Made by a program: the position numbers and the translations under genes
Shown: positions 2,142 through 5,888 of the stretch, piece by piece
How positions within the stretch are numbered: position 1 is the stretch's first letter
Layout: each line of letters opens with the position of its first letter
The notes under the pieces: generated by a model
The model's input: only the letters and a program-made list of their open reading frames with translations
Database searches by the model: none
What the model was told of the DNA's origin: nothing
Assembly: GCA_964480865.1 (NCBI GenBank)
Contig: CAYZRP010000024.1
Span: 698-64,697, forward strand
DNA: 64,000 nt
From: an uncultured Anaerolineales bacterium
GTDB lineage: Bacteria; Chloroflexota; Anaerolineae; Anaerolineales; UBA6663
Direction of reading: 5' to 3'

Positions 2142-3734
2142 ATGGCCGACCAACGTCGCACGAAGCGAACCACCCCCTTGAGTGGCGGTGGACGTCTCAC
2201 CAGGGAAGAGTGGCGCCGGTTCGACATCAGCAAGGCCTGGGTCTGGATCGGCCTGATCGTCCTGGCCATCATCCTGTTGCTCCTGCGCGGCTGCAACCCC
2301 CAGGTCGCCGGCACCGTTTCGACTCCGACAGCCGCGGCTGTGGCCACCGAGATCAAGCCGACTGACGTCGCGCCTACCGCGGTCGCGCCGACTGACGTCG
2401 CGCCGACTGATGTCGCTGCCCTCACGGCAACGACTGCGGCGCCCACGAACACGCCTGTGCCGGACGAGCCGCCGTCGGTCGATCCGCAGGATGGCGTGAT
2501 CCCGGGCGGGACCGTCGCGTTCGGTGGGACGGCCGCGCCAGGCGCCGAGGTCGACGTGCAGGTCGACGGCGTCTCGGTCGGCAAGGCGAAAGCCGACGCT
2601 CAGGGCCGTTGGACGCTGGACGTCGAACTCAAGGCTGGCGACCATGAGGTCGTGGTGGTCGGGCCGGATGGCTCCGCGAGCAAGCCCGAAAACTTCCAGA
2701 TTGGTTCGGGGGCTGTGCCGGATCCGGTCACGGTCAGCGAGCCCGCCGCGGGCGCTTCCGTTGCGCCTGGGCCGTTGACTTTGTCGGGCACCGCTGGCCC
2801 CGCAGCGGATCTCGTCGTGCTGGTGGATGGCAAAGAAGTCGGGCGCATTCAGGCGGACGCGCAAGGCGCATGGACGACTGACATCGATCTGCCTGAAGGC
2901 GCTCACAGCATTGTGGTCGCGCCGGCGTCGATGGACGGCACCGTGTTCAATGAAGCGGCCAGCGCCCCGCTTGATGTGACAGCTGAAGCACAGGGCGTCG
3001 CGCCGACGTTCACCGAACCCGAATCTCCCAACGGACTCGCGGTTGGTCCCGTGATCTTCCGCGGGACGGCCGCCCCCGGCTCGACAATCACGTTGAGCAT
3101 CGATGGCAAGGACGTGCGCACCGTCACGGCTGAAGACGATGGCTCCTGGTCGGCCCAGATCGATGTGCCGTCTGGAGACCATGACGTAGTGGCCACATCG
3201 GTTCAGCCCGACGGGCTCGAGGCCACGTCTGAGGCTTACGCGATCTCGGCGACGGCTGTCAAACCGACGATCACGTCGCCGATTGCGGGCAATGTCACGT
3301 CCGGCAACGTCGTGTTGCGTGGCACGGCTTCGCCGGGGCAGGATGTCGAGATCGTGGTTGATGGCACTGTCGTCGGCACGACGACGGCTGACGCGCGCGG
3401 CAACTGGTTCCTGTCGACGCCGCTGACGGCCGGGGCGCGCAGCGTGGTCGCGCGTTACGCAGGCTCGACGGCCGCCGGTGACTCGTCAGACGCTGTCGCA
3501 TACACCGTGCAGCAGCGCCGCGCTGGCGGGCAGTGCCGCAATACCACGCCGATCCCGGCCGAGGTCTCACGCTACACGGTCGAGGTCAACGACACCCTGT
3601 ACTGCATCTCGCAGCGCTCGGGCCTGTCGATCGCGGCGATCAAGCGCGACAACCCGTTCATCACCGACGAGAACCTGATCCTGCCGGGGCAGATCCTGAC
3701 GCTTCGCGAACATACGCCGCCGGCGGCGAAATAA
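2142..3734 (+). CDS. Membrane-anchored protein with about 5 bacterial Ig-like repeats and a C-terminal LysM domain
   Basis: N-terminal TM helix (WVWIGLIVLAIILLLL) and a PTDVA-type linker. Repeats of the form GTAAPG..V.V.VDG..VG...AD..G.W. C-terminal YTVEVNDTLYCISQRSGLSIAAIKRDNPFITDENLILPGQILTL matches the LysM consensus. Confidence 0.8.
   Translation: MADQRRTKRTTPLSGGGRLTREEWRRFDISKAWVWIGLIVLAIILLLLRGCNPQVAGTVSTPTAAAVATEIKPTDVAPTAVAPTDVAPTDVAALTATTAAPTNTPVPDEPPSVDPQDGVIPGGTVAFGGTAAPGAEVDVQVDGVSVGKAKADAQGRWTLDVELKAGDHEVVVVGPDGSASKPENFQIGSGAVPDPVTVSEPAAGASVAPGPLTLSGTAGPAADLVVLVDGKEVGRIQADAQGAWTTDIDLPEGAHSIVVAPASMDGTVFNEAASAPLDVTAEAQGVAPTFTEPESPNGLAVGPVIFRGTAAPGSTITLSIDGKDVRTVTAEDDGSWSAQIDVPSGDHDVVATSVQPDGLEATSEAYAISATAVKPTITSPIAGNVTSGNVVLRGTASPGQDVEIVVDGTVVGTTTADARGNWFLSTPLTAGARSVVARYAGSTAAGDSSDAVAYTVQQRRAGGQCRNTTPIPAEVSRYTVEVNDTLYCISQRSGLSIAAIKRDNPFITDENLILPGQILTLREHTPPAAK
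2358..2417 (+). repeat. 15-nt in-frame tandem repeat x4 (ccgactgacgtcgcg-like) encoding PTDVA/PTAVA linker
   Basis: Read directly: ccgactgacgtcgcg / cctaccgcggtcgcg / ccgactgacgtcgcg / ccgactgatgtcgct. Confidence 0.9.
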
Positions 3735-3789: not shown

Positions 3790-4476
3790 ATGTCCACCCC
3801 CTCCGATCAAGTCCAGGACGTTCTGCGAGACGCGTTGGCGCTCATCTCCCTCGGCAAGAAGATCGAGGCCGTCAAACTGCTGCAAAAGCGTTTCGGTCTC
3901 GGCCTCAAAGAGGCCAAGGAGATGGCCGACGGGCTCGAGCGTGGCAAGTCGACCGAATTCCAGGTCACTTTCCAGCCCACGATCGCGCTCACGAACGACC
4001 GTGAATCTGACGTGCGTCGACTTTTGACCGAAGGCAAAAAAATCGAAGCCATCAAGCTCATTCGCGAGATGACAGGCCTTGGCTTGAAGGAGGCCAAGGA
4101 CGCTGCCGAAGCCATGGAGGCCGGCCAGCCGTTCACGTTGCCCCAACGTCCTTCCCCTGCGTCGTCAGCCGAGCCGCTGGCCGAGACGGATTCCTGGATC
4201 GAGATCGATCGGTTGATGCGGTCGGGCAACAAGATCGGGGCCATCAAGCGCCACCGCGAGGCGTTCGGCACCGGCCTGGCCGAGGCCAAACAGGCCGTCG
4301 AAGTGCGCGCGGCGGGTCAGGCCATTCCACAGGCTCCGCGCCCGCCCCAAACTGAGGAGCCGCAGACCCTGGCGCAGCGATTGGGTATCCCCGGCGTCGT
4401 TGTAGGATTGGTCGGCGTGCTGATTGTCGTGACGATGTGCGCGCTGCTGTCGTATGCAGTCTGGAACGCCCTGTAG
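3790..4476 (+). CDS. Protein with three ribosomal L7/L12 C-terminal-domain-like modules and a C-terminal TM anchor
   Basis: Three repeats: [87 protein letters not shown]. They resemble the E. coli RplL segment [25 protein letters not shown]. C-terminal hydrophobic helix [27 protein letters not shown]. Confidence 0.7.
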   Translation: [228 protein letters not shown]

Positions 4477-4607: not shown

Positions 4608-5888
4608 ATGATGTCGCGGTCCCGCTGGTTCGGCCTGGCGAGCCTAACGATCTCGCTCGTTGTCTTTGCGCTCTGGCTTCAACCGATCGCCTCCGCCGAT
4701 GTCACCCGATCTGTCAAAAGACCCCAACCAGAGAGTGCAGCGGATGCCACGACGGCGCGCCGGGTGGCCTATGCGGATCTCGATTACCTTGGCGCCTTTC
4801 GGGCGCCCGAGGGTGACAATGTCGGCTGTAACTACGGCAACGGCGAGCACTGCTTTACTTACGGCGGACTCTTCGGCATCGGCCGGACGGGCGCCAGCCT
4901 GTACCTGCGCGGCCATGCCTGGGCCGGCGGCGTCGGCGAGGTCAGCGTCCCGGCGTCGCTGACCTTGAGTTCCACGGCCACCGTCCTGCAGGATATCCAC
5001 GACGTGGCCGACGGCGCCGAGGTCGACCCCGGCGAGGTCAACGGCCAGGGCCCGTTCGCGGGCCTTGTTTATGGTGGGCGTCTGATCGTCTCCGGCTCGA
5101 CCTACTACGATGCCGACGGCACGCAGGCCCTCACCCACGGCGTCTCGGGCCTCGATCTCTCGCTCCCCAACGACTTCGACGGCTGGTATCGCTTCAGCCC
5201 CGCGCTGGCCGCCAACCCGCGTTCGATCGGCGGCTACATGACGCCCATTCCGCTCGAGTGGCAGGCCCTGCTCGGCGGCACGGCCCTCACGGGCAACTGC
5301 TGCCTGTCGATCATCAGCAACAGCTCGGCCGGGCCGTCAGCCACGGTGTTCGATCCGGCGTCAGTCGGCGTGACGGATCCGCTCACCGGCACCACGGTGT
5401 TGCATTACCCGCTGGCCCATCCGCTCGAGCCCGAGACCACACAGAACGAGTACTTCAACCTGGCGACCCAGATCGAAGGCGTCGCGTTCCCGCCGGGCAC
5501 GCGCAGCGTCCTGTTCGTCGGCCGGCAGGGCACCGGCCCTTACTGCTACGGCGACGGCGCACCCTGCGGCGATGTCTGCGACGGATCGAAGGGCACGCAT
5601 GCCTATCCGTACCGCCACCAGATCTGGGCCTACGACGCGAATGATCTGCTGGCTGCCCGCTCTGGCGCGACCGCGGTATGGGCGATCCGGCCGTACGCGA
5701 TCTGGACCCTGACGGAGATGGATTCGGCGGGCTGCGCAGACATCTCAGGCGCGGCCTATGACCCGACCTCGGGCCGGCTGTACATCGCGGCCGGCTATGG
5801 CGATGAGCCGATCATCCACGTCTACGCGATCGCGGGCACTGCGACGCCGCTGGATCATCGTCTGACATTGCCGTCGCTGGCGCGCTGA
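4608..5888 (+). CDS. Secreted hypothetical protein (signal peptide)
   Basis: Start moved to the ATG at 4608, preceded by aggaggg. N-terminus MMSRSRWFGLASLTISLVVFALWLQPIASA looks like a signal peptide. No family recognised. Confidence 0.6.
   Translation: MMSRSRWFGLASLTISLVVFALWLQPIASADVTRSVKRPQPESAADATTARRVAYADLDYLGAFRAPEGDNVGCNYGNGEHCFTYGGLFGIGRTGASLYLRGHAWAGGVGEVSVPASLTLSSTATVLQDIHDVADGAEVDPGEVNGQGPFAGLVYGGRLIVSGSTYYDADGTQALTHGVSGLDLSLPNDFDGWYRFSPALAANPRSIGGYMTPIPLEWQALLGGTALTGNCCLSIISNSSAGPSATVFDPASVGVTDPLTGTTVLHYPLAHPLEPETTQNEYFNLATQIEGVAFPPGTRSVLFVGRQGTGPYCYGDGAPCGDVCDGSKGTHAYPYRHQIWAYDANDLLAARSGATAVWAIRPYAIWTLTEMDSAGCADISGAAYDPTSGRLYIAAGYGDEPIIHVYAIAGTATPLDHRLTLPSLAR

Follow-up and report, generated by a model that had tools for sequence, protein, structure and literature searches.

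Introduction

Bacterial ribosomes and translational GTPases universally make their first contact through the helix 4-helix 5 hairpin of the stalk protein bL12 (L7/L12). An EF-Tu-binding alpha-hairpin was reportedly recognized in both the N-terminal domain of EF-Ts and L7/12 by Wieden et al. in 2001. To our knowledge, the bL12 hairpin has hitherto been described in two protein contexts only, namely, bL12 and EF-Ts.

The contacts made by this region of bL12 have been mapped. In NMR titrations, translational GTPases perturbed bL12 residues 66-70 and 80-85 with Kd values of 0.1-0.4 mM, and contact with L11 required the helix 4/helix 6 cleft, K95, and L106 (PMC3505967). Mutational work cited in PMC5770553 places helix D of EF-Tu in contact with helices 4-5 of L7/12. 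Alva, Söding, and Lupas (2015, PMC4739770) listed the hairpin as fragment 24, the EF-Tu-binding fragment common to EF-Ts and L7/12, and counted it among the ancient fragments that recur in different folds.

The present study concerns one gene in a 64,000-nucleotide stretch of DNA (hereafter, the window) from an uncultured Anaerolineales bacterium. A preliminary description of this gene proposed a membrane-anchored protein composed of three modules similar to the C-terminal domain of L7/L12. Based on sequence comparisons and predicted structures, we consider the known EF-Tu-binding hairpin to be present here in a third scaffold, which appears to be minimal, membrane-tethered, and tandem, and in which the contact residues are kept.

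Results

The gene, P0001, is located at 3790-4476 on the forward strand, as are all of the features described below. It is an ATG-initiated open reading frame of 228 codons and encodes 228 amino acids. Since full-length orthologues (50-82% identity) were present in all five genomes of the genus and dN/dS was 0.17 and 0.29 for two relatives, 3790-4476 (+) is a real gene under purifying selection.

The product contains three repeats of approximately 45 residues each with the core K-I-x-A-[IV]-K...G-x-G-L-x-E-A-K, and these are separated by poorly conserved linkers rich in P, A, S, and Q. The motif that the preliminary description had assigned to all three repeats was exact in modules 2 and 3; in module 1, R-E is replaced by Q-K. 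AF2 modelled the full-length product as a membrane helix and three discrete three-helix bundles (mean pLDDT 77.8, pTM 0.30), with no strands, with disordered linkers, and with no contacts between the modules, which resemble beads on a string. Module 1 (aa 4-50, 3799-3939) has predicted helices at aa 4-20, 24-35, and 39-50 with a pLDDT of approximately 90, and its helices 2-3 form a hairpin similar to alpha4-alpha5 of L12 (aa 24-50, 3859-3939; positions 11-37 of the Pfam profile PF00542). The predicted helices of module 2 (aa 67-110, 3988-4119) are aa 67-80, 84-95, and 99-110, and its hairpin (aa 84-110, 4039-4119) matched PF00542 positions 9-37 with 35.3 bits. Those of module 3 (aa 132-174, 4183-4311) are aa 132-144, 148-159, and 163-174, with the hairpin at aa 148-174 (4231-4311; PF00542 positions 10-36). 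Module 2 is the copy closest to L12, with 67% identity to the bL12 of the same genome in a 27-column alignment, and module 3 (G-T-G-L-A-E-A-K) is the copy with the most divergence.

The low-complexity linkers and terminal transmembrane helix of the preliminary description were both borne out. Linker 1 (aa 51-66, 3940-3987) is predicted to be disordered, with a pLDDT of 50-58 that falls below 50 at aa 62-67, and the corresponding columns of alignment A1 are variable. Linker 2 (aa 111-131, 4120-4182), which is Pro/Ser/Ala-rich and also disordered (pLDDT <50 at aa 120-129), differs in length and sequence between orthologues. The Pro/Gln-rich linker 3 (aa 175-199, 4312-4386; pLDDT <50 at aa 179-193) tethers the modules to the membrane helix, and its final 10-residue stretch before this helix is kept in orthologues. 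The C-terminal transmembrane helix, a tail anchor, spans aa 200-227 (4387-4470) in the AF2 model. Its core is marked by a Kyte-Doolittle window above 1.7 at aa 202-220, in agreement with the membrane anchoring proposed earlier, and only approximately six residues follow this core.

The likeness to L7/L12 was real and covered exactly the helices that contact translational GTPases. PF00542 (Ribosomal_L12) matched the protein with an E-value of 1.2e-20, above the gathering threshold, in three separate stretches, which a whole-genome profile scan placed at 3856-3936, 4030-4116, and 4225-4305 of the window. The further claim that the modules are C-terminal domains of L12 did not hold: each repeat covers only approximately positions 9-37 of the 67 positions of PF00542, and the predicted fold is an all-helical bundle that lacks strands 1-3 and helix 6. 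The preliminary description had also considered that the similarity may be confined to the G-L-G-L-K-E-A-K stretch. It extends over the whole helix pair (approximately 27 residues), although the fold differs from that of the L12 domain, which in part counts against the preliminary description.

Profile comparisons placed the same limits on the homologous region. A profile of alignment A2, which comprises 120 diverse modules with no more than approximately 62% identity to one another, could be aligned with the bL12 encoded by this genome in just 27 columns (67% identity; hhalign E 2.8e-10). Against the PDB, this profile matched only bL12 below an E-value of 1e-5, always through module positions 18-46, and the next matches were two designed TPR proteins at approximately 5e-5. 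Among 150 Chloroflexota genomes, true rplL products matched module positions 18-44 only, whereas the modules of the family matched positions 3-49, which is a clean diagnostic between the two. No Pfam match to the N-terminal domain of L12 was obtained at E<=1, and TIGR00855 matched through positions 60-94 of 125 only, with 62.8 bits against a cut-off of 84.4; the absence of the N-terminal domain noted in the preliminary description was thus confirmed. The genome's own rplL is located on another contig (C100) and is normal, with a complete C-terminal domain (PF00542 positions 1-66).

When module 2 was predicted alone with the 120-row alignment, AF2 returned helices at positions 3-17, 21-32, and 36-48 with a pLDDT of 90.6 and a pTM of 0.73. 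The hairpin of the module superposed on the 25-residue bL12 fragment of 8rdw chain D, as modelled in the 70S-Balon-EF-Tu(GDP) structure, over 24 residues with an rmsd of 0.3 Å. In contrast, the fit of the module to the complete bL12 C-terminal domain (1ctf) was poor, with an rmsd of 6.2 Å over 44 columns. For a single module, Foldseek returned no match at E<=0.001. The Z-scores of the leading structural matches to the whole module were 7.2-7.4, a range expected for small helical bundles; from the chain labels, we take these matches to be C-terminal helices of eukaryotic eL36. bL12 was absent from the top whole-module matches. A fold search with the whole model yielded helical-repeat matches only, which are meaningless because the three domains are mutually unplaced in the model. 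Since the match is restricted to the hairpin and the predicted fold is all-helical, we conclude from sequence and model that a module represents the helix 4-5 hairpin of L12 with a family-specific supporting first helix, rather than an L12 C-terminal domain.

The G-h-G turn of the hairpin also led us to consider helix-hairpin-helix DNA binding, which was ruled out because no HhH family matched at E<=1.

Conserved positions were compared between the modules and bL12. Twelve residues were at least 90% conserved in the 120 modules: G19, K21, I22, A24, I25, K26, R29, G33, G35, L36, E38, and K40. In our mapping, G19 lies before the corresponding stretch of bL12, and the remaining positions correspond to bL12 K65, V66, V68, I69, K70, R73, G77, G79, L80, E82, and K84. 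The true-bL12 consensus used in this comparison was built from loci matched by alignment A1 patterns, of which there were 80, most of them ordinary rplL. The two consensus sequences agree across the K-I-x-[AV]... stretch and are unrelated beyond it. The modules keep the GTPase-contact set of bL12 but not the L11-contact set. Modules 1 and 3 deviate from the consensus at contact positions, with Q-K for R-E and T-G-L-A for L-G-L-K, respectively. Similarity to the hairpin of EF-Ts, as examined in the genome's own EF-Ts, was weak (hhalign probability 37%, 22 columns).

The complex of one module (with A2) and the G domain of EF-Tu (aa 1-210) was also predicted, and scored 0.24 against a mark of 0.32 in a run without controls, a score that speaks neither for nor against binding. 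The EF-Tu sequence was taken from a genome of the same genus (G003) because the window's assembly has no assembled tuf. In this assembly (G000), which has 97% completeness, no EF-Tu gene was found, and the best match to TIGR00485 reached 97 bits, the cut-off being 522. Of the four other genomes of the genus included in this search, three carry an EF-Tu gene; the absence from G000 is probably an assembly gap.

The family is large. An exhaustive search, counted in clusters at 50% identity, returned 4,041 clusters at E<=1e-3, the weaker tail of which contains true bL12, and 1,288 clusters at E<=1e-10. Named members belong to Chloroflexota, Anaerolineales, Myxococcaceae, Archangium, and Pirellulales, and the Atlas clusters add Pseudomonadota and Bacteroidota; the source names of homologues are in keeping with an Anaerolineales origin of the window. 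Within the taxonomic family, 15 of 22 genomes carried the gene; across the phylum, approximately 21 of 150 sampled genomes contained a module match in addition to rplL. This patchy distribution is that of an accessory function. No clear member was found in 14 control genomes, four of which contained matches to DUF6793 or PRK06771, always below the cut-offs, and a tblastn search of phage records gave no match.

Adjacent pairs of module matches were observed in three genomes of one Chloroflexota genus (G129:C1:472299-472619, G085:C14:111239-111559, and G171:C21:70667-70978), with a single in-frame TAA between or within the paired matches. These pairs could be two short adjacent genes or a two-module gene with a conserved stop inside it.

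The statement in the preliminary description that no characterized example was known agrees with our literature searches, and the family is filed under uninformative or wrong database names. Many relatives carry the source label "ribosomal protein L7/L12", and the cluster is named "ribosomal protein L7/L12 [Chloroflexota bacterium]"; this label is a mis-annotation. DUF6793 (PF20593) matched the query with 32.5 bits (cut-off 27) through positions 73-101 of 107 only, and a whole-genome scan with DUF6793 yielded nothing at E<=0.01. PRK06771 (NF005269) scored 78.1 bits against a cut-off of 90, with each module matching positions 53-95 of 97. The same hairpin is, therefore, already contained in these catalogued families, which have no assigned function. 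A literature search for "DUF6793" retrieved no paper. Searches for L12-like, Ribosomal_L12, and PF00542 retrieved incidental mentions only, none of which concerned the family; one was of a cyanobacterial orthocaspase with a Ribosomal_L12 accessory domain.

Members of the family are mostly single-pass membrane proteins. Among 291 relatives, 110 have an N-terminal anchor followed by modules, 129 have modules followed by a C-terminal anchor, as in the query, and 52 have no anchor; in homologues from Myxococcota, the anchor is N-terminal. The commonest number of modules is three (165 of 255 relatives). Of the 129 proteins anchored at the C terminus, 80 start with a CxxC...CxxC zinc ribbon, which is absent from all 110 that have the anchor at the N terminus. 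This ribbon is of the type F-x-C-P-x-C-G-A...C-x-[FY]-C-x-[ST]-x-V-x-V-P-x-E-L-R, as at the N termini of P0257, P0262, P0150, and P0015, and gave one weak match to DUF7560. Long relatives consist of the zinc ribbon, two to four modules, one membrane helix, and an outer domain. The domains that follow the membrane helix are NHL/SBBP/PQQ propellers, SBP_bac_3, Coa1, an esterase, and a 3-keto-disaccharide hydrolase, all of which we take to be extracytoplasmic from general knowledge of these families. In these long forms, the module array resembles the output end of a single-pass receptor on its cytoplasmic side. The query is a minimal form with neither the zinc ribbon nor an outer domain.

No signal peptide was detected in the query, the N terminus of which is hydrophilic. 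In the 12-residue flanks of the membrane helix of 204 single-pass relatives, the module side had 417 K/R residues and the opposite side had 75. Among the forms with an anchor after the modules, the module side was richer in K/R in 69, poorer in 3, and tied in 24. Based on the lack of a signal peptide, the C-terminal anchor, this charge bias in the family, and the fusions in the long forms, the modules face the cytoplasm. For the query itself, the flanks of which hold only one versus zero K/R residues, this orientation is probable. The query is a tail-anchored inner-membrane protein, with a single helix at the extreme C terminus and its bulk (aa 1-199) probably in the cytoplasm.

Two proteins from the representative search, P0217 (953 aa) and P0247 (593 aa), contain six to seven tandem complete L12 C-terminal domains (PF00542 positions 1-66), and one of them carries fused LRV/HEAT repeats. 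They represent a different non-ribosomal re-use of L12 from the hairpin-only modules.

The gene lies outside the rplJL operon and is the last of three head-to-tail genes spaced 11 and 55 bases apart, and each of the three encodes a product with a predicted membrane segment. The first gene (13-2130) runs off the window start; its product, a coiled-coil/HhH protein, has an N-terminal membrane segment and is at least 705 aa long. This product contains a long coiled coil, in which the motif I-P-T-[LI]-x-x-S-x-x-x-W-E-x-[KR]-Y recurs, and its C-terminal part has two helix-hairpin-helix motifs (HHH_5, E 2.2e-11). The position of its gene, two genes upstream of the L12-hairpin gene, is kept in relatives down to 54% identity. 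The second gene (2142-3734) encodes a membrane-anchored Ig-like/LysM protein of 530 aa with four Big_3_5 repeats and a C-terminal LysM. Immediately upstream of the L12-hairpin gene and separated from it by 55 bases, this second gene shows synteny with it in close relatives only. Downstream, an open reading frame for a secreted protein with no Pfam family extends over approximately 4608-5888. It is listed from a GTG at 4437, which overlaps the end of the L12-hairpin gene; the 425-aa length of the product in relatives points to a true start close to the signal-like M-M-S-R-S-R-W-F. This downstream gene is present in relatives L005-L007 and absent in L008. In the neighborhoods of four distant members of the family, we found no translation or GTPase genes and no consistent shared partner.

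Discussion

We tentatively favor the reading that the protein is a cytoplasm-facing, multivalent, and weak tether for translational GTPases at the membrane. The main argument is that charged residues of an exposed type are retained in a different scaffold, which suggests that the partner surface is the same as that of bL12. From the anatomy and homology described above, we infer GTPase binding and its consequence as follows. In the model, the soluble part (aa 1-199) comprises three independent mini-domains on flexible linkers. Each hairpin may bind the G domain of a translational GTPase (EF-Tu, EF-G, IF2, EF4/LepA, or RF3) weakly, similar to free bL12 C-terminal domains, and, with three flexibly tethered copies, the membrane may gain a surface for multivalent capture. 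The protein would, therefore, serve to enrich translation factors beside the membrane or to sequester them there. It would be unable to act as a ribosomal stalk, contact L11, or activate GTP hydrolysis. We count several findings against the tether: the neighborhoods of distant members lack translation and GTPase genes, the distribution is patchy, the likeness to the EF-Ts hairpin is weak, and modules 1 and 3 are off consensus at contact positions. The conserved charged residues could instead stabilize a very small helical domain.

Three other explanations were weighed against this tether. Re-use may have turned the hairpin into a general adaptor or output module in the cytoplasm, with a partner other than a translational GTPase, in a manner similar to an anti-sigma factor or a single-pass receptor, with the short form of the query as a receptor-less version or a scaffold. 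This is possible, albeit doubtful in our view. It accounts for the receptor-like architecture of the long relatives, the lack of neighborhood links to translation genes, and an overall fold that is a generic three-helix bundle, the best whole-module matches of which (Z ~7) are unrelated proteins. However, a new partner is expected to reshape the contact surface, and the factor residues of the bL12 surface type have kept at least 90% conservation through long divergence in a new scaffold, with a consensus that is almost that of bL12; this argues against the adaptor. A ligand-free array of self-associating modules or spacers that organizes a membrane complex with the coiled-coil/HhH and Ig-like/LysM proteins appears very unlikely. 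The close spacing of the three genes, their order, which is kept to 54% identity, and the predicted membrane segments of all three products are in keeping with such a complex; however, the synteny is confined to close relatives and gone in distant members, the AF2 model contains no inter-module contacts at its pTM of 0.30, and the near-invariant charged residues are left unexplained.

We give hardly any credence to the remaining explanation, an alternative ribosomal stalk protein, i.e., a true bL12 paralogue that joins the ribosome. The name "ribosomal protein L7/L12" of many relatives and the PF00542 score above the gathering threshold would fit it. However, its anatomy contradicts this assignment: there is no L10-binding N-terminal domain, TIGR00855 remains below its cut-off (62.8 versus 84.4 bits), the C-terminal domain is incomplete and all-helical, a membrane anchor is present, and a normal rplL is encoded elsewhere in the genome (contig C100).

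A more specific form of the tether is also conceivable, although we consider it unlikely. The protein may be a membrane-bound pseudo-stalk that concentrates EF-Tu ternary complexes or other translational GTPases, such as EF4/LepA, at the membrane's inner face, with capture in the long forms possibly controlled by the extracytoplasmic sensor. If so, the long forms would link an outside signal directly, across the membrane, to the availability of translation factors or the local synthesis of membrane proteins. We know of no such link in bacteria.

The proposed third scaffold for the hairpin is spread over several phyla and more than 1,000 sequence clusters. If the modules bind translation factors, bacteria could position or withhold these factors at the membrane, and in receptor-like relatives this could depend on signals from outside. 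If no such binding occurs, an ancient peptide fragment has been re-used with its surface intact, and a widespread annotation error under the name "ribosomal protein L7/L12" is also flagged.

Several known systems resemble the family in part. Single-pass regulators with a cytoplasmic partner-binding domain include zinc-binding anti-sigma factors and ToxR-type proteins. The long members of the family are similar in layout, with a cytoplasmic zinc element and modules, a membrane helix, and an extracytoplasmic sensor-like domain. However, they have no sequence relation to these regulators and involve no sigma factor or DNA-binding domain, and the query lacks both the zinc ribbon and the extracytoplasmic domain. 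The profiles of DUF6793 and PRK06771 both match each module through their C-terminal parts; however, these models have 97-107 positions, whereas the query combines three copies with an anchor at its C terminus.

The alpha-hairpin with which EF-Ts and L7/12 bind EF-Tu is the same short helix pair with a T-G-x-G turn. It is known in two unrelated folds and contacts EF-Tu, and the modules match it in sequence and predicted geometry. They would constitute a third scaffold, with an extra helix before the hairpin; in EF-Ts, the extra helix lies after it. The likeness of the modules to the EF-Ts hairpin is weak, whereas that to the bL12 hairpin is strong.

bL12 (PF00542; 1ctf, 1dd3, and 8rdw chain D) is the remaining comparison. 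In contrast to bL12, the modules have no N-terminal dimerisation/L10-binding domain, no strands 1-3, and no helix 6, and consequently no L11-contact cleft; a family-specific helix before the hairpin is predicted to complete a three-helix bundle instead. Furthermore, the copies in the query are tandem in one chain, membrane-anchored, and encoded outside the rplJL operon. On the other hand, the helix-turn-helix of approximately 27 residues is homologous to that of bL12 (57-67% identity) and has the same near-invariant residues at the GTPase-contact positions 66-70 and 80-85, and, as in the bL12 stalk, several copies are held on flexible tethers.
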